In this document: piece by piece, positions 1,612-7,622 of the stretch
Numbering within the stretch: the first letter of the stretch is position 1
Layout: each line of letters starts with the position of its first letter
Source: an uncultured Syntrophaceae bacterium
Lineage (GTDB): Bacteria > Desulfobacterota > SM23-61
Length of the DNA: 64,000 nucleotides
Assembly: GCA_964484485.1 (NCBI GenBank)
Contig: CAZAGD010000033.1
Location: 1,238-65,237 of the forward strand
Direction of reading: 5' to 3'
The notes under the pieces: model-generated
Seen by the model: the letters and a program-made list of their open reading frames with translations, nothing else
What the model was told of the DNA's origin: nothing
Databases searched by the model: none
Translations under genes and position numbers: made by a program

Positions 1612-1790
1612 TTATACGAACGAATTTATTGAATATTTTCTTTAATAATTTCAATATGTTATGCGTTCGTAAATGCGTTCGTAAAATATCTTAGTTACGA
1701 ACGCATTTTTCTGAGTAATATCATAGAATTAGGCTAAAAATTCGTTAAAATGAGTTCGTTCACTTCTCCCTCAAACGAATTCAAAGAAAT
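1612..1790. repeat. AT-rich iteron-like repeat block (TGCGTTCGTAA x2 direct plus inverted TTACGAACGCA; AACGAATTT / AAATTCGTT inverted pair)
   Basis: Read directly: 1659-1683 two tandem ATGCGTTCGTAA, 1696-1708 inverted copy, 1615-1626 ACGAACGAATTT vs 1739-1751 AAATTCGTTAAAA; located immediately downstream of the rep-like gene. Confidence 0.5.
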
Positions 1791-2057: not shown

Positions 2058-2690
2058 ATGTCTACCCGCTTAGCAGAAATATTCGCAGATGATAAACTAA
2101 CTGAGAAGATAAAAAGACGCTTACCTTACTTATTTCAGCTTGCAGAGTTAGAAAGTTCAAGAGCGGGTAAAACTGGAATGGAAGTTGGCTCAATTAGAGA
2201 AAGGATAATAGTGGCTTTGTTGATTTATAAATTCGGAGAAGAAAATGTGGAAACAGAAATACCGATTACTGAATCAGAAATAGATGCAAAATTATTTGGG
2301 GAGCCTATATCAATCAAAACGATCACGGGTAAGAATTTGGGCGGTGTCAAACTTATATGGACTGTGGATGCTCAGAAGGCAAAAGAATTTCGTGAGAACT
2401 ATTATCCCCATTGCGATATTTTACTTGTTCAAATCAACTGGAATGATAAAGGGGGATTTTATTACATCCCATTATCAACTCAGAAAATGCTTTTTAATAG
2501 AATAGGCAGAGAAAACTATATCAAGCTTCCAAAACCTGGAACAAATCCCAGAGGTGTAGAAATTACTAAAGAGGCATTATCCAGTTTAATTGAAGCAGAA
2601 GATTCAAAAAGCATCTCAATAATCTGGCAAAGAACAAAAATTGAGTTCAATTGCTATAAAAGATGGGTGGATCTATGGAGGGAAGAATAA
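2058..2690 (+). CDS. putative type II restriction endonuclease (R subunit of R-M pair)
   Basis: 210-aa ORF whose stop overlaps the RBS of the downstream methyltransferase; no other family recognisable; assignment by genomic context only. Confidence 0.4.
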   Translation: MSTRLAEIFADDKLTEKIKRRLPYLFQLAELESSRAGKTGMEVGSIRERIIVALLIYKFGEENVETEIPITESEIDAKLFGEPISIKTITGKNLGGVKLIWTVDAQKAKEFRENYYPHCDILLVQINWNDKGGFYYIPLSTQKMLFNRIGRENYIKLPKPGTNPRGVEITKEALSSLIEAEDSKSISIIWQRTKIEFNCYKRWVDLWREE

Positions 2691-2691
2691 A

Positions 2692-3636
2692 ATGGGATTT
2701 AATAGAAGAAAATATGGCACAAAAACAAGTGCATTCGGTTCTCCGGGAAGAATTAATCATGATTCCACTCCTTTTTATACAAGCAAATTGTATGAGGAAT
2801 TGCCCAAAGAGGAGGCAGTCGAATATGTAGAAAATGCCGTTCCATCAGAGTTTATAGATAAAATCATTTGTAAATCTAGTGAAAAAATGAATGAATTACC
2901 TGATAATAGCATTCATTTGATGGTTACATCTCCTCCTTACAATGTAGGAAAAGAATATGACGAGAATCTCACTTTAAATGAATACAGGTCATTCTTAAAA
3001 AGAGTTTGGAGTGAAGTTAGAAGAGTGCTCGTTCCTGGCGGGAGAGTATGTATCAATATTGCTAATCTTGGAAGAAAACCATACATCCCGCTTCATGCTT
3101 TTATAATTGATGATATGCTTGATTTAGGTTTTTTAATGAGAGGAGAAATAATTTGGAATAAAGCATCAAGTGGTAGTCCTTCAACTGCTTGGGGTAGCTG
3201 GCTTTCTGCTAAGAACCCAACGCTTAGGGACATTCACGAATACATTTTGGTCTTTTCGAAAGGAATGTTTTCTAGAGGAAGTTATGTCAAAAGAAAAAGC
3301 ACCATTTCTAAGGAAGAATTTCTTGAGTTTACGAAAAGTGTATGGACATTTGCTGCTGAGCCAGCATCGAAAATAGGACATCCAGCGCCTTTTCCAGTTG
3401 AATTACCTTACAGATTAATTCAGCTTTACACTTTTGAAGGTGAAGTTGTTTTAGACCCTTTTGTAGGAAGCGGGCAAGCTGCAATTGCAGCGATAAAAAC
3501 AAGACGCCACTATGTTGGATACGATATAAACCGAGAATATGTAAAATTGGCGGAAAAAAGAATTAAAGAATTTTCATTAGCGTTTAATGCACCTAAATTG
3601 TTTGAATTCAGAGAGAAATCAGGCAATTTGATATAA
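2692..3636 (+). CDS. DNA methyltransferase, beta-class amino-MTase (N4-cytosine or N6-adenine)
   Basis: Motif IV SPPY (MVTSPPYNVGKEY) preceding motif I FVGSGQ (DPFVGSGQAAIA) = beta-class order; GGAGGG RBS 9 nt upstream of ATG 2692 (ORF track start 2641 probably too early). Confidence 0.85.
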   Translation: MGFNRRKYGTKTSAFGSPGRINHDSTPFYTSKLYEELPKEEAVEYVENAVPSEFIDKIICKSSEKMNELPDNSIHLMVTSPPYNVGKEYDENLTLNEYRSFLKRVWSEVRRVLVPGGRVCINIANLGRKPYIPLHAFIIDDMLDLGFLMRGEIIWNKASSGSPSTAWGSWLSAKNPTLRDIHEYILVFSKGMFSRGSYVKRKSTISKEEFLEFTKSVWTFAAEPASKIGHPAPFPVELPYRLIQLYTFEGEVVLDPFVGSGQAAIAAIKTRRHYVGYDINREYVKLAEKRIKEFSLAFNAPKLFEFREKSGNLI

Positions 3637-3706: not shown

Positions 3707-4099
3707 ATGGAGTCTCGGAAGGTCTTTAAGATAAAAAATAGTTTTTGCATTTGTCTTCCTTCTTCGATGGTAGAGATGCTTGAGATTAAAAAAGGTGATA
3801 GGTGTCAGTTTCTCTTGCTTCCTGGTTATGGGCTTTTAGTTAAGAAAGAAGGAATGGCCGATAGCTTTCATGCGCAAATGGAGGCTATTTCTGATTTGAG
3901 GCAGGAAGCTGATAATATTTTTCATGACTTTAGGCGTAAGGCACGGGGTTTGGTTCACCAGTTTGGTTTTAGGTTAGCTGAAGAATATATTAGTGCCTTA
4001 TTGGATAATTTAAAACGTCCTGCCCAAAGTTTTTTGGCAGAAGAGCAAAAGGTTCCCGACCTTCTTCTAAGTGGGGAAGAAGAAAAGAAGAAGAGTTGA
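3707..4099 (+). CDS. AbrB/MazE (SpoVT-AbrB swapped-hairpin) family DNA-binding protein
   Basis: N-terminus VFKIKNSFCICLPSSMVEMLEIKKGDRCQFLL matches swapped-hairpin beta-barrel pattern; helical C-terminal extension. Confidence 0.45.
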   Translation: MESRKVFKIKNSFCICLPSSMVEMLEIKKGDRCQFLLLPGYGLLVKKEGMADSFHAQMEAISDLRQEADNIFHDFRRKARGLVHQFGFRLAEEYISALLDNLKRPAQSFLAEEQKVPDLLLSGEEEKKKS

Positions 4100-4323
4100 G
4101 CTGAATAAAAAAGGATAGAAAAGATGAAATCATCTTTTAAACTAATCTGCGCAGAAGACCCTAAGATATTAGGAATTGAGAAAAAGAATGGAGATTGGGA
4201 TTAAAACGCATTAGCTGAGCACATAAAAAAATGTGCGGCCTGAAGAGTTTATAAAGAGCAATTAAAGAAGGATTTAGCTAAATTACTAAGGATAGGCTCC
4301 CATAAAAAGAAAGGGCGAGTAAA

Positions 4324-4557
4324 ATGAATAAGAAGCAAAGATGGGTTTTGATTATAGGTGGAATAATCATTGCACAAATGTTATTAAATCCGCCTTTTGA
4401 ATATAAAACTTTAAATGGCGTAACTTATAGTGGGGGATATGGTTGTCTTTTCACGGATTATGGGAGTGGAAAAGGTGTTAATTTAAGTTTATTATTTACG
4501 CAATGGATAGGAGTAATTTTAATATGTGCTATTTTATGGATTGTTTTTAAAAATTGA
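4324..4557 (+). CDS. small membrane protein (2 predicted TM helices)
   Basis: 77 aa, two hydrophobic stretches (VLIIGGIIIAQMLL; GVILICAILWIVF). Confidence 0.35.
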   Translation: MNKKQRWVLIIGGIIIAQMLLNPPFEYKTLNGVTYSGGYGCLFTDYGSGKGVNLSLLFTQWIGVILICAILWIVFKN

Positions 4558-4639
4558 GAATAAAGAATTAAAGCAGTAATTTAGGGGAAAAAGCCATGCA
4601 TTTTTAATCTCTTCTCTTTCCCCAACTAATTATAGAAGG

Positions 4640-5360
4640 GGGTTGAGGGGGAAACGAATTTAGCTGGGGTAGGGGGACTCCAGCGTTAAGAATTTGTTTC
4701 CCCTCATAGCTGCCGCCGCTTTCACCAATGAAAATAGAATGAATGCTAAAGCGGCGAGACCCCGTCCGCCATGATTTTGACGGCTTAGCTGAATAATTAA
4801 GAGAAGAGCGAGAATAAAATTAAATTAAGCTAAAACTTTTCCTTCCCGCAAGGCTCAAGGATTGAGCCCATGGAGAAGGGAAAGTTTTCTCCTTTACAAA
4901 ATTTAGAATAAAGAGGCGGTTTAAAATTGTGCTGGGGGTATCAGGGCTTTGCTTAACCCACTTGGGTGGGCAATTTAGGAAGGGGGTTAAGTGGCCTGAT
5001 ACCAGCCAATTTTGCCTCTTTATTTTAAATTTTGTTTTTTTGGGGGTTGGGTGGGAAAAGAAAAAATTAATCGCGGGGCTTGGGTAAGTGAAAAAATACC
5101 TTTGTTCCGCCCAAAGGCGAAAAAAGCAAAAAGGCTTGGTAGGCCGAGGCTCTGGGTTAAGCCCCCTCCCGCTCCCTATCGGGATCCGGATCCTTGAGGG
5201 CTTAACCTTTCGTCGTTACCGACTCAACCACTCGCCCTTGCCTACAATGCTCCCACCTGGTCGCATTGCTTAACGGCAATGGCTCGGGCAGACCCTCGGC
5301 CTACCAAGCCTTTTTGCCGATCAAAAAAACTTTTTTTCTTACCCAAGCCCCGCAAAAGCT
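4640..5360. ncRNA. candidate large structured RNA or origin-like region: chain of hairpins with nested near-perfect long inverted repeats
   Basis: No ORF >60 aa other than two implausible ones. Hairpins 4644-4704, 4713-4757, 4846-4891. Perfect 11-bp IR 4908-4918/5015-5025 with nested 9- and 8-bp stems. Outer 16-23-bp IR 5073-5096/5330-5353 enclosing perfect 24-bp IR 5126-5151/5293-5311. Recurrent GCTTAAC/GTTAAGC motif. Confidence 0.3.
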
Positions 5361-5965
5361 GCGGCGGCCGCGGCCACATTTTTTTTAATTGAAATTAAAA
5401 CTTTTTAAAGAGAAGCAGTGTAGGATGTTATAAAGGTCTCTCCCAAACCGGGAAACCTCCGCTTACCAGAATAAAGGTAAAAAAGCTAAAAATTAAATTT
5501 TTCCTTTTTTAAGAAATAAGCGAAAGAGACTCGGGCTTAAATTATCGGATTAGCGCAAATATATAAATGCTATTCGAAAAAATGAGTGCGCCATTATACC
5601 AAATCAGTCTTAAAAGATTAGAGATTAGGCTTTAAAATTTGATACCTAACTCAATAATGCTTTTCAAAGAAGATATAAGGCATAGTCAAGTTATAAGTTC
5701 AAGGATTACCTTTAAGCGCTGAGATTTTTCCCGGGATGAATTGAGAAAAAAATTTCTTAAAAAAAAGGGTTCTTCCTTAATTTTGGGGGATGCTTTGATA
5801 TTGTCCGCCATAAAAAGTCTCGTCTAATGGGCTATTATTAAGCCGGGTATTCAAAAAAAATTATTTTTCTATCAAAAAATAATGCTTGACAAGAAAAAAT
5901 TAGTAAGTTATGCTTATAAGTAAGATAGGTATTTAAGATTTAGATATTATGGTGGGGGTGGATGA

Positions 5966-6124
5966 ATGAAAAAGGAAGAGAAAAAATCGAAATCAGTAAG
6001 GTTGCAGGTTCAGCTTGACCCAGAGATAATGAGAGCATTAAGAAGAAGGGCAGCCGATGAATTAAAGACAGTCAGGAAATTAATAATTGAATGGGTGCAG
6101 AGCTGGTCTAAAGAAAAGAAATAG
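5966..6124 (+). CDS. small RHH/Arc-like putative DNA-binding protein (52 aa)
   Basis: ATG 5966 preceded by GGTGGGGGTGG; translation MKKEEKKSKSVRLQVQLDPEIMRALRRRAADELKTVRKLIIEWVQSWSKEKK has beta-strand then two helices typical of ribbon-helix-helix; below ORF-track cutoff. Confidence 0.35.
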   Translation: MKKEEKKSKSVRLQVQLDPEIMRALRRRAADELKTVRKLIIEWVQSWSKEKK

Positions 6125-6157
6125 GATTGGCGGGTGGGCCTGGAAAGGAGGTCCATA

Positions 6158-6280
6158 ATGAAAAAAAGAATAAAGAAAATATTAAGGGAAATCAAAGAGC
6201 AATGCCGTATTGTTATGGAGGATCGGCGGATAAAAGAGAACGATTGGATTGTGGCTCGATTGGGGTTGCATAATATTTAG
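6158..6280 (+). CDS. small basic protein (40 aa), possible partner of RHH ORF
   Basis: AAAGGAGG RBS 7 nt upstream of ATG 6158; MKKRIKKILREIKEQCRIVMEDRRIKENDWIVARLGLHNI. Confidence 0.25.
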   Translation: MKKRIKKILREIKEQCRIVMEDRRIKENDWIVARLGLHNI

Positions 6281-6474
6281 AGCTCTGCGATCTTGGGGAA
6301 AAAGAAGTTGAAAAAGATCCTTGAATAAAAAATTAATGGCGCCACCCGGAACCGGCTAAGGAACCAAGGAGCGCCCGGGCAGGCATGCCAATTAACTGGC
6401 CCACCCACCATTTTATTTATAGCACGGATTGATATGGGAGAGCAATAAAAAATGGAAAAAAATGGAGGTAGTCC

Positions 6475-7539
6475 ATGGGTGTTTATAAAAGGGGGAATGT
6501 TTATTACATAGATTATTATTTTGAGGGAAATAGGATTCGGGAGCGAGTGGGTAAGAATAAAAGACAAGCTGAGTTGGCTCTTGCTTCAAGGAAAGGGGAG
6601 ATTGCTCAAGGGAAATTTAATCTTGAGCGAGTAAAAAAGACTCCTTATTTTGAAGAATTTGCCAAGGAATATTTAGATTGGGCCAAAATCAATCATCGCT
6701 CTTGGGAAAGAATGGATGCAGTGCGGATAAAATGTTTATCGAATTTTTTTTCAGGGAGGCGCTTAAATGAAATCACGCCTTGGCTCATAGAGAAATTTAA
6801 ATCAGAGAGGAAAGATAAAGTAAAGCCGGCGACAATTAACCGAGAGTTGGCCGTGCTCTCGGCCATGCTTTCTCGGGCGATAGAATGGGGGAAGCTTAAT
6901 GAGCATCCTATGAAAGGTGGAAAGGTTAAAAAACTAAGAGAAGATGGCCATAAAGAAAAGATATTAACTGAAGAAGAAGAGAGTCGGCTTTTATCTGTGT
7001 GTAGAGGATGGTTTAAAGAAATGGTGGTTATAGCCTTAGATACCGGAATGCGTCTATCAGAGATAATTGAATTAAAAAAAGAGGATATTGACCTTAATAA
7101 TCATTTAATAAAAGTGAAACATACCAAAAGCGGCAGAGAGAGGAAAATTCCCTTAACTGAAAGAGTATTCTCCATACTGGCAGAGAGGATTAAAGAAGTT
7201 AAAGATTCGGAATTTATTTTTGCCAAAGGAAATGGAAATAAGTTATGGGCTGTAAGGAGTGCCTTTCTTAGGGCTTGTAAGAGAGCTGGTTTTGTTGGTT
7301 TGAGGTTTCATGATCTGCGGCATACCTTTGCTACTCGCTTAGTAACTTCCGGAATTGACCTGGCCACGGTGCAAAAATTACTTGGTCATGAAAATATTCA
7401 AATGACCTTGAGATATTCGCATCCAAGGTCTGAGGATATGAAGCGGGCCATAAAAATTCTTGAGAAGAATGCGGAGAGCAGTCACAAAATGGTCACAAAA
7501 GATGAAATGAAATTATTAAATCTTTGTATAACCCCTTGA
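6475..7539 (+). CDS. int: tyrosine site-specific integrase (phage integrase family)
   Basis: C-terminal catalytic motifs [11 protein letters not shown] and [14 protein letters not shown] (R-H-R-Y); N-terminal arm/SAM-like domain; ends 7 nt from tRNA 3' end. Confidence 0.9.
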
Positions 7540-7545
7540 AATTAC

Positions 7546-7622
7546 TGGCGCGCCCAGCCCGACTCGAACGGGCGACCTACGGATTCGTAGTCCGGCGCTC
7601 TATCCAACTGAGCTATGGGCGC
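7546..7622 (-). tRNA. tRNA-Arg (anticodon ACG)
   Basis: Reverse complement GCGCCCATAGCTCAGTTGGATAGAGCGCCGGACTACGAATCCGTAGGTCGCCCGTTCGAGTCGGGCTGGGCGCGCCA folds as cloverleaf: 7-bp acceptor, D-arm GCTC/GAGC, anticodon loop CTACGAA, T-arm GCCCG/CGGGC, encoded CCA. Confidence 0.9.

Follow-up and report, generated by a model that had tools for sequence, protein, structure and literature searches.

The hairpins studied here lie in a 64-kb stretch of DNA, the whole of which is called the window below. They stand in a stretch of 1.4 kb that is free of open reading frames (ORFs) and contains all four of them, inside an integrated P4-like element whose parts are a primase-helicase, a ThaI restriction-modification system carried as cargo, an AbrB-like gene, an Arc-like gene, an integrase and a tRNA-Arg (Table 1). 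The initial annotation, made from the sequence by itself, had remarked that large ornate RNAs such as GOLLD and ROOL typically occur in prophage-like regions near tRNA genes, and the hairpins are indeed found in an integrated element, 2.5 kb from the tRNA-Arg. Across the family the gene order is primase-helicase, AbrB-like gene, one variable cargo gene, structured region, and then either the Arc-like gene with the integrase or the attachment site. The elements are roughly 9 kb in size, hold about ten genes and integrate at a tRNA. In all related elements the AbrB-like gene precedes the cargo slot and the structured region, and the slot that holds a 77-aa ORF in the window is occupied in sister elements by a 322-aa, a WYL, a 199-aa or a 209-aa gene. 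An equivalent Arc-like gene also follows the structured region in the distant lineage L022. Small elements of this kind, which integrate at a tRNA and whose slot for cargo carries the ThaI system in the window, form a previously undescribed family.

The replicase of these elements is a Toprim/DUF3987 primase-helicase, and no relaxase, rolling-circle initiator or invertase is encoded in them. Immediately behind the primase gene, at 1615-1760, stand five or more iterons of the form TACGAACG(A/C)AT, some in each orientation, and none were found in 4600-5400. A replication origin at the structured region was considered and rejected, the iteron-type origin being that at 1615-1760. Scans of the AbrB-like family against genome and viral collections gave nothing relevant, the primase had no match among viral contigs, and the Arc-like protein and a spurious 52-aa ORF, used as search handles for further loci, brought up no new lineage.

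Table 1. Features of the hairpin region and of the adjoining part of the element (positions in the window).
Feature	Position	Strand	Remarks
AbrB/MazE-like gene, 130 aa	3707-4099	+	weak MazE_antitoxin match; family of 11 protein clusters, aligned
Cargo ORF, 77 aa, in variable slot	4324-4557	+	
5' edge of conserved non-coding module	4605-4635	+	homology to L016-type elements begins at 4605
Hairpin 1	4644-4706	+	outer stem 7+10 bp with one bulged G, nested inner 8-bp stem
Junction CAUAGCUGCCGC	4704-4719	+	identical in A-type and B-type lineages (alignment)
Hairpin 2	4714-4756	+	9-bp stem GCCGCUUU/AAAGCGGC, large loop, weak
Hairpin 3	4832-4888	+	inverted repeat I3; perfect 7-bp apical stem GGCUCAA/UUGAGCC
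Hairpin IV	4896-5041	+	inverted repeat I4; irregular, 140 nt, then U7 at 5035-5041; terminator-like on +
G-rich word GGGGGUUGGGUGGGAAAAGAA	5042-5062	+	86% repeat (D6); other copy 4638-4658, at base of hairpin 1
Outer inverted repeat, left copy (GCGGGGCTTGGGTAAG)	5073-5088		partner 5338-5353
Inner inverted repeat (I2), left copy	5126-5154		partner 5289-5317; 29 nt, 97% complementary
Three-way-junction cassette, 134 nt	5155-5288	-	between 29-bp inner inverted repeats
Inner inverted repeat (I2), right copy	5289-5317		
Outer inverted repeat, right copy	5338-5353		16 nt, 100% complementary to left copy
Intrinsic-terminator-like GC hairpin and T8 run	5358-5385	+	likely 3' end of structured unit
Less structured non-coding DNA	5386-5863	+	still 84% identical to L016-type elements
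Promoter-like site TTGACA-17-TATGCT	5886-5914	+	before Arc-like gene
Arc-like (ribbon-helix-helix) gene, 52 aa	5966-6124	+	PHROG Arc-like repressor match
Tyrosine integrase with arm-binding N-terminus	6475-7539	+	Pfam Phage_integrase 6.3e-40
tRNA-Arg(ACG), attachment site of element	7546-7622	-	attP-like junction in L002

Folding and limits of the hairpin chain

The hairpins at 4640-5025 are real, and all four that had been annotated there were recovered at, or very near, the same positions. Three of them (4644-4706, 4832-4888 and 4896-5035) fold far better than shuffled sequences, and that at 4714-4756 is marginal. Hairpin 1 folds at −33.0 kcal/mol (z −5.2, equalled by none of 200 shuffles) and hairpin 3 at −29.5 kcal/mol (z −4.1); hairpin 2, with z −2.1 and 7 of 200 shuffles folding equally well, is marginal when taken alone. 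For hairpin IV the z score was −8.9 and the folding energy −66.1 kcal/mol on the + strand versus −55.5 on the − strand. It had been described as an extended hairpin at 4908-5025 with an 11-bp closing stem; the hairpin exists, but its true span is 4896-5035 and its closing arms are 22 nt long at 95% complementarity. Its inner stem is formed by GCUUAACCC and GGGUUAAGU. Over the whole stretch 4560-5400 the z score is −10.6 for the + strand and −16 for the − strand, and the GC content is 0.43-0.53 in the module versus about 0.33-0.38 in its flanks.

Four copies of GGTTAAGC occur in the 64-kb window, three of them at 4951, 5155 and 5200, and these three lie as stem halves in no more than two stems, the inner one of hairpin IV and the cassette arm 5155-5207. 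More clearly clustered is the looser word GGGTTRRG, with 5 of its 10 window copies within 4640-5160. The GCTTAAC/GTTAAGC core, on which a family of related modules had been proposed, is real and recurs in 5073-5353, but what is left of the family is two stems sharing the same 8-9 bp in a single lineage; the more distant B-type and C-type sister lineages lack the exact core.

Integrons are marked by attC sites of 57-141 nt with RYYYAAC ... GTTRRRY boxes (R''/R'), by an IntI integrase and by a cassette array. GCTTAAC ... GTTAAGT fits the two boxes, so that the hairpins might be read as integron-like attC sites at a slot for gene cassettes: hairpin IV, the only place where the boxes fit, has them in its core in the right R''/R' order, the region comes directly after the variable cargo gene, and its folding is strand-specific. 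However, the integrase is not of the IntI type but an arm-binding phage type acting at a tRNA, there is one cargo gene and no array, and a second copy of the motif has its boxes in reverse order. The motif is also absent in the B-type and C-type lineages, and the hairpin that it bounds is about 42 nt long; we know of no attC site as short as this. The attC reading is already largely refuted and retains hardly any probability.

At the 5' edge of the module, the word AACUA..UAUA(G/A)A..GGGUUGAGG in 4605-4635 is also kept in L022. No convincing sigma-70 promoter was found directly upstream of the module, which counts against an RNA. A GC-rich hairpin followed by a U run, as in an intrinsic terminator, was found at 5358-5374 with its T8 and at hairpin IV with its U7; hairpins 1 and 2 have no U run. 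L016 carries a different stem sequence at the site equivalent to 5358-5385, with the same CACAUUUUUU tail. Two independent assemblies end at 4635, another break falls at 5217, and three assemblies begin at 5649.

On the + strand hairpin 3, hairpin IV (U7) and 5358-5385 (U8) are terminator-like, as is 5118-5098 on the − strand, and the region could be an ordinary stack of terminators and mRNA-stabilising hairpins that insulates the cargo slot from the arc-int and host genes, with the inversions described below as accidental by-products of long repeats. Its place, which in every case follows the cargo and precedes int or the attachment site, agrees with such a role, and so does the persistence of hairpins while the sequence changes fast between lineages. 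We nevertheless regard a mere terminator stack as doubtful: hairpins of 140 and 281 nt, in about 780 nt altogether, exceed the needs of termination, and hairpin 1 is without a U tail. The region also holds a three-way junction with a conserved scaffold and compensated arms, and the conserved unpaired words GGGUUGAGG and CAUAGCUGCCGC, and the identity of the module (92-95%) exceeds that of the neighbouring genes.

A coding region was rejected, the longest ORFs being 61 aa and the single ORF called as a gene evolving without constraint. In that ORF (4929-5087, the only one called by others here) about 15 nucleotide changes altered 12 of 52 residues, and it is therefore not coding. A hammerhead-like look of GAGUCGGUAACGACGAAA was dismissed as well: it deviates at the core positions, its GAAA is not kept in L016, and Rfam gave no match.

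Conservation, compensatory changes and strand polarity

Compared with elements that have different neighbouring genes, 4605-5154 is 92% identical and 5289-5863 is 84% identical. The sister elements that share the module differ in cargo and replicase, and their AbrB-like protein is just 72% identical. At the same position, B-type and C-type relatives carry regions of 0.9-2.4 kb that are highly structured and lack ORFs.

Hairpin 1 was found in L022 by the covariance model R1 (E 2.6e-5). Fourteen of its 25 pairs are changed on both sides, a number that none of 500 shuffles reached and that compares with 1-4 in slid controls; 95.9% of the cells are paired, versus 46-56% when the partners are slid. 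Covariation across homologues had been proposed as a check: compensatory changes, as expected of a structured RNA helix, are present in hairpin 1 (14/25) and in the cassette (11 compensated pairs among 3 alleles), in two or three lineages only and in an alignment fitted to the model. Counting against the RNA reading, of the substitutions that separate the window from L016, an A-type pair, at sites predicted to be paired, half disrupt the pairing and none is a double compensation.

The module is strand-specific, with + polarity. In the window chain, internal 1x1 mismatches of the G·U and A·C kinds stand at 13:0 on the + strand and 3:4 on the − strand, and in L022 at 22:1 versus 6:2. Substitutions relative to L016 at paired sites keep the pairing five times on the + strand and once on the − strand, and four substitutions in hairpin IV keep it only as G·U on the + strand. 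This G·T-tolerant polarity is also compatible with a folded single strand of DNA. The big hairpins of B-type and C-type elements have no strand preference, which counts against the RNA reading.

The covariance-model search proposed by the initial annotation was run with Rfam 15 (4227 families, GOLLD and ROOL included) at the gathering score on the window and seven related loci, and only tRNAs were found. Within 4300-6500, at E<=5, there were only chance-level miRNA, snoRNA and sRNA matches of at most 21 bits. The module matches no described RNA family, and the likeness to GOLLD and ROOL that had been suggested did not hold, neither of these nor any other Rfam 15 family giving a match. Group II intron, 6S, Y RNA and tRNA-like readings had no support from Rfam or ARAGORN. 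A blastn search of 4560-5960 against phage and plasmid collections gave no match, and when viral contigs were scanned with three hairpin words, two words gave nothing. The third, the 17-mer GGCTTGGTAGGCCGAGG, hit eight viral contigs, of which six are copies of a single phage, over just 17-19 nt within unrelated sequence, and these hits were set aside as chance.

Selfish palindromic repeats (MITE-, REP- or ERIC-like), accumulated by chance in an intergenic region, could produce a long hairpin with terminal inverted repeats, and contigs do break in and around the hairpin. This origin is highly improbable: the 64-kb window holds the structure once only, the two arm cores, when searched for in 241 million metagenome records, turned up a single contig of the same element family, and wherever the structure occurs, both its position and the type of element around it are the same.

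An invertible and hypervariable cassette

In the window the cassette is opposed to the hairpin chain, an orientation independently confirmed by contig L001, and in L016, L017, L020, L021 and L018 the two run the same way. The covariance model R2, which represents the cassette, scored 166 bits on the − strand of the window, and it found no cassette copy in B-type or C-type elements nor elsewhere in the window. A second inversion junction, at the outer 16-bp repeats, is present in L019. The locus thus has identical flanking inverted repeats and both orientations, as an inverton does, the orientations being observed across different elements or samples and not within one population. Contig breaks at 5217 and in the repeat arms hint at heterogeneity.

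The cassette is also hypervariable: L018 and L021, which are otherwise 99.97% identical, show 58 differences, of which 53 fall inside it. The same three-way-junction fold is present in three cassette alleles, the sense strand being 13-15 kcal/mol more stable. No promoter-like site and no conserved ORF were found within 5155-5288, and the integrase that targets the tRNA, 1.1 kb off, is the only recombinase present. When the cassette was tried for antisense pairing with nine leaders of the element's genes, the best duplexes lay within the background distribution, which counts against the RNA reading. An antisense immunity RNA of the P4 CI/c4 type is not supported, with no complementarity above background in the nine leaders and no Rfam match.

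The 16- and 29-bp repeats are without G·U pairs and resemble DNA recombination sites more than RNA helices, which counts against the RNA reading. A component at the DNA level, which the initial annotation had not foreseen, is indicated by the long near-perfect stems and by the demonstrated inversions. It is possible, at odds well below even, that the whole region is a cis-acting one, in which hairpins and repeats act as a folded single strand or cruciform of DNA and any transcript is incidental; possible roles are recombination or inversion sites, a helper-copied packaging or transfer signal, or priming sites for the complementary strand. In agreement with this, the 16-bp and 29-bp inverted repeats are perfect, two different inversion junctions occur in related contigs, and the cassette has been swapped between elements 99.97% identical elsewhere. 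The region is also the best-conserved non-coding part of the element, as is usual for cis sites that fit a helper, its polarity suits a folded DNA strand too, and assemblies break at 4635, 5217 and 5649. On the other side, the elements carry primase-helicases and an iteron origin elsewhere, but no relaxase, rolling-circle initiator or invertase, and no matching potential helper was found in the phage, plasmid and viral-contig collections. About 9% of the pairs in the chain are G·U, which is typical of RNA and costly in DNA, and the unit is closed by a hairpin-plus-T-run terminator.

A candidate structured transcript and its relation to known systems

The hairpins and 5073-5353 are conserved together, are strand-specific and are followed by a + strand terminator, and we therefore prefer one large unit. 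Of the two options raised by the initial annotation, a family of modules or one large ornate RNA of ~700 nt, the second is the better, in that there is one conserved structured unit of ~700-800 nt; that it is an RNA we infer. Our main reading, to which we give a probability of about one half, is that the hairpins are the 5' two-thirds of a single strand-specific, structured non-coding module of about 0.78 kb (about 4605-5385, +), most likely RNA, with the flippable cassette as its specificity determinant.

Transcription, processing and function of the module, which we likewise infer, might proceed as follows. As a + strand product, the RNA would form the extended 3' end (3' UTR) of the AbrB-cargo transcript or, alternatively, would start at a weak promoter belonging to the module itself, at about 4610-4635. 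The U-tailed hairpin IV would bring about a first stop and the terminator 5358-5385 the final one, so that transcription would not run on into the arc-int genes or the attachment site. The long near-perfect stems (hairpin IV and the 80-bp arms of 5073-5353) may be sites of double-strand-RNA processing, where cleavage would free smaller stable RNAs, including the 134-nt three-way-junction RNA. With the cassette flipped and exchanged at the DNA level between its identical inverted repeats, an element would express the sense cassette, the antisense one (as in the window) or another allele, and the cassette could serve as a switchable specificity determinant, for example of immunity or incompatibility between related elements. 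More tentatively still, and with rather low confidence, the cassette may be a phase-variable, exchangeable RNA gene (an 'RNA shufflon'), in which inversion and allele swapping would choose which RNA a long precursor yields on processing, the variable tips would decide the specificity of immunity or incompatibility within the P4-like family, and the hairpin chain would be precursor scaffold and terminator.

Segments between identical inverted repeats that occur in both orientations are shared with invertons and shufflons, and nested repeats likewise allow more than one inversion. In contrast to those systems, the segment here has no promoter-like site or coding sequence and holds a folded RNA-like module, no dedicated invertase adjoins it, and its orientations come from different elements or samples. 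The DNA inversion switches known to us flip promoters or protein-coding ends, not structured RNA modules.

RNase III recognises processing stems such as the rRNA precursor stems and lambda sib. The long near-perfect helices enclosing a structured RNA are a feature in common with these, cleavage being putative here. In L016-type circles the module lies across attP from int, as sib does, but in the window it is upstream of int, and sib-like retroregulation therefore cannot be general.

ColE1 RNA I/II, R1 CopA, P4 CI and P1/P7 c4 are cis-antisense RNAs that control copy number or immunity in plasmids and satellites (cf. PMC7567579). Stem-loop tips that vary between similar replicons, and could set specificity, are found in both cases, and the element here is P4-like with a primase-helicase. 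The likeness is purely an analogy: there is no match to Rfam C4 or a related family, the cassette is 3 kb from the iteron origin, and no convergent promoters were detected.

The large ornate RNAs GOLLD and ROOL (Rfam; the review of Harris and Breaker, via PMC7567579; cryo-EM in PMC12286853) share with the module a length of several hundred nt, many helices, the lack of coding capacity and a mobile element next to a tRNA gene. They differ in having many short helices with conserved junctions, whereas the stems of the module are long and near-perfect; the module is also partly invertible DNA, and known so far from few metagenomic element lineages. According to the passages on PLE phage satellites of Vibrio cholerae in PMC7567579, the most abundant PLE transcript, the inter-inverted-repeat (IIR) transcript, is a non-coding RNA between inverted repeats, an analogue that speaks for the RNA reading. 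The non-coding region of a small integrative, satellite-type element is the setting in both cases, the RNA here being a predicted one. Those passages describe antisense matches of the PLE RNA to leaders of PLE genes, whereas none were found for the module; they do not report inversion or hypervariability for PLE, and the two have no sequence relation.

What is unusual in the element described here is a folded non-coding cassette that is both invertible and hypervariable. To our knowledge, no function has yet been established for GOLLD, ROOL and the other large structured non-coding RNAs that mobile elements carry, and a compact new example in a 9-kb element of about ten genes would be a tractable case. 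If the main reading is true, an invertible RNA cassette would be a new way to vary RNA-borne specificity.

Hairpins within an integrated element

The 1.4 kb that contain the hairpins (4558-5965) hold no credible ORF and reach a GC content of 0.43-0.53, compared with about 0.33-0.38 in the flanks; the stretch belongs to an integrated element (see the table). Inverted-repeat detection and folding against shuffled sequences found the four hairpins essentially at the places claimed in the initial annotation, confirming its observation; its interpretation was partly supported. Hairpin IV had been given too short a closing stem, as the actual arms span 22 nt and are 95% complementary. The GCTTAAC/GTTAAGC core proposed to be shared along the chain does exist, but only in two stems with 8-9 bp in common (4951/4984 and 5155/5200). 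A looser G-rich word, GGGTTRRG, has five of its ten window occurrences in 4640-5160. The entire 4560-5400 region folded with z of -10.6 on the + strand and -16 on the - strand.

Features of the element and of its structured region (window positions)
Feature	Position	Energy on + strand (kcal/mol)	z	Remark
DUF3987 primase-helicase	361-1527
Iteron cluster TACGAACG(A/C)AT	1615-1760			At least 5 copies, both orientations, in AT-rich gap directly after primase-helicase gene
ThaI-type restriction endonuclease and overlapping N4/N6 DNA methylase	2058-3636			Endonuclease complete (E 1e-98); element cargo
AbrB/MazE-like gene	3707-4099			130 aa
77-aa ORF	4324-4557			Followed by structured region
Hairpin 1	4644-4706	-33.0	-5.2
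Hairpin 2	4714-4756	-12.9	-2.1	Marginal; equalled by 7 of 200 shuffles
Hairpin 3	4832-4888	-29.5	-4.1
Hairpin IV	4896-5035	-66.1	-8.9	U7 directly after
Nested repeat	5073-5353		about -14	Either strand
29-bp inverted repeats	5126-5154 and 5289-5317			Arms of cassette
Cassette	5155-5288			134 nt, between the arms
GC hairpin with T8	5358-5385			Terminator-like on + strand
Promoter-like site	5886-5914
Arc-like gene	5966-6124			52 aa
Tyrosine integrase	6475-7539
tRNA-Arg	7546-7622			- strand

On the + strand, the G-rich words GGGGGUUGAGG (4638-4658), GGGGGUUAAGU (4982-4994) and GGGGGUUGGGU (5042-5062) resemble the Shine-Dalgarno-like GGUGGGGGUGG (5950-5962) ahead of the Arc-like gene, and by this resemblance might be mimics of ribosome-binding sites.

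The iterons are the probable replication origin of the element. On metagenome contig L014 the element continues further left, with an additional AlpA-like HTH_17 gene; the left end lies past both the window start and L014. Contig L002, whose integrase is identical, shows an attP-like junction for the window's element in the 3' half of the tRNA (1333-1429; window 7546-7594); a single mismatch falls in the anticodon region, and past the tRNA 3' half the sequence is AT-rich and unrelated. In two other contigs (L003 and L004), the integrase gene is 100% identical and the sequence diverges completely upstream of window 6446 (contig positions 1-29), so that the integrase module exists in another upstream context too. 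The opening ~85 nt of the AbrB-like gene occur a second time, as a truncated copy ahead of the ThaI restriction-modification genes (1927-2012 versus 3707-3792, ~85% identical), suggesting that this pair may have been inserted as cargo via recombination at the 5' end of the AbrB-like gene.

Sister elements and strand-specific structure

The AbrB-like protein family comprised 11 clusters, found in metagenomes only, whose contigs fell into three lineages: A (the window and L016-L021), B (L022-L024) and C (L025-L029 and L032-L034). The evidence base is a few lineages, because the public matches are all short metagenomic contigs. In all lineages, a single variable gene (77 aa, 322 aa, WYL, 199 aa or 209 aa) comes after the AbrB-like gene, and behind it lie 0.9-2.4 kb of DNA that has no ORFs and folds strongly; an Arc-like gene comes next in L022 as in the window. 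Elements of the L016 type differ from the window's in replicase (a Zn-ribbon protein and a 592-aa Toprim/DUF3987 protein), integrase and target, which is tRNA-Glu, and their AbrB-like protein is only 72% identical. Even so, homology begins exactly where the cargo gene ends, with ~92% identity over 4605-5154 and ~84% over 5289-5863. Contig L018 is a 9.04-kb circular form of the L016-type element (80-nt overlap of ends), with ~2 kb of non-coding sequence and an attP of 49 nt from the tRNA-Glu 3' part adjoining int; the sister element is here in its excised or episomal form.

The general build of the window's nested repeat, in which very long perfect arms enclose a small branched interior, recurs in the big hairpins of the B- and C-type elements, where neither a sequence relation nor a strand preference is seen. 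Two C-type contigs have a common 68-nt segment in opposite orientations (L026:2880-2947 and L032:3972-4039, 73% identity), the L032 copy of which overlaps the end of a minus-strand gene.

A search with a covariance model for hairpin 1, derived from A-type sequences, found a B-type copy in L022 (4040-4140, E 2.6e-5). Its flanks GGGUUGAGG and CCUCAUAGCUGCCGC match the A-type ones exactly, while the stems are largely rewritten. Covariation supported the pairing of hairpin 1: 14 of 25 pairs were altered on both sides with compensation and 95.9% of cells were paired, against 46-56% when partners were slid. Polarity was measured as internal G·U pairs versus A·C 1x1 mismatches, which numbered 13:0 on the + strand and 3:4 on the - strand for the window chain, and 22:1 and 6:2, respectively, for the L022 chain. 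The + strand was more stable by ~10 kcal/mol in hairpins 1 and IV. Between the window and L016, 23 substitutions were found in 4636-5041; five at paired sites still pair as G·U on the + strand and one on the - strand, but 12 of the 23 break predicted pairs and double compensations are absent, so this close pair gives modest support only.

The terminator-like hairpin is kept in L016 with an altered stem. A plain stack of terminators or insulators would account for the position and the U tails; we consider it improbable, since the size, the conserved unpaired words and the cassette are all left unaccounted for. An ORF at 4929-5087, called as a gene in L018-L021, was rejected as coding because 12 of its 52 residues change for ~15 nucleotide changes. 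Covariation, polarity, the 3' end and the non-coding character together argue for a single-stranded nucleic acid of + sense, from ~4605 to ~5385, for which RNA would be the simplest reading.

An invertible, hypervariable cassette

Outside the coordinates of the initial annotation, but in the same unit as the hairpins, the cassette is flipped in the window relative to L016, L017, L018, L020 and L021, while the orientation of the arms is unchanged. Contig L001, from a different sample, agrees with the window's orientation at the right junction. The segment folds into one and the same three-way junction in three alleles, with 11 compensated pairs and a strand polarity of its own. Sense and antisense energies were -82.6 and -69.5 kcal/mol for the L016 allele (sense on +), -67.4 and -52.7 for L018 (sense on +), and -68.4 and -54.5 for the window (sense on -), where the cassette covariance model scored 166 bits on the - strand. 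At the tail of contig L019 (8137-8191), the chain flank is joined to the reverse complement of the right arm just past a 16-bp outer repeat, GCGGGGCTTGGGTAAG, which could be a second, outer inversion or else a chimeric-read or fold-back sequencing artefact.

Over 6218 aligned positions, 58 differences separate L018 from L021; 53 of these lie inside the 135-nt cassette (L018:8902-9036) and three more within 10 nt of it, with flanks 99.97% identical. Because point mutation cannot give such clustering, the cassette must have been exchanged as a hypervariable unit. Breaks in independent metagenome assemblies fall at 4635 (two contigs), 5217 (one) and 5649 (three), which fits a stretch common to, or heterogeneous among, co-resident elements; ~1 kb from 4635 to 5649 seems not to have been resolved in the assemblies of those communities.

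Perfect repeats, inversions and high conservation would also suit a region acting as DNA, either as recombination or inversion sites or as a packaging, transfer or priming signal. We regard this, the main rival reading, as less likely in view of the G·U content, the terminator, an element with no relaxase, rolling-circle or invertase gene, and the failure to find a matching helper sequence. As candidates, a MITE/REP repeat and an integron attC site each failed the defining test.

A candidate structured transcript

Our best reading, with a probability of about one half, takes the unit for a single structured transcript of the + strand, or else for a long 3' UTR belonging to the AbrB-cargo operon; the reported hairpins would form its first two-thirds. 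The U-tailed hairpins would end the transcript and may also keep read-through from reaching arc-int or the attachment site; the long near-perfect helices would serve as double-strand-RNA processing sites; and the transcript would contain a cassette that can change, at the DNA level, in both orientation and allele. Both the RNA nature of the module and its function are what we infer from these features.

The structured regions of the window and its relatives matched no Rfam family, and that of the window had no match in phage and plasmid collections. The suggested kinship with GOLLD and ROOL was thus not upheld: the unit fails both families' models, and the sole likeness is that it, too, is large, structured and non-coding and sits in a mobile element with a tRNA nearby. 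The closest published analogue found is in PLE phage satellites, which have an abundant non-coding transcript between inverted repeats (PMC7567579). The PLE RNA has antisense matches to gene leaders, whereas none were found between the window cassette and the element's gene leaders. In its behaviour the cassette is like an inverton or shufflon, except that what it carries is neither a promoter nor a coding end but a folded non-coding module.

The region is a new, uncatalogued structured non-coding module in a new family of small integrative elements, its unusual feature being the invertible and hypervariable cassette adjoining the reported hairpins. A switchable cassette of this kind would point to a role in specificity, for instance in immunity or incompatibility.
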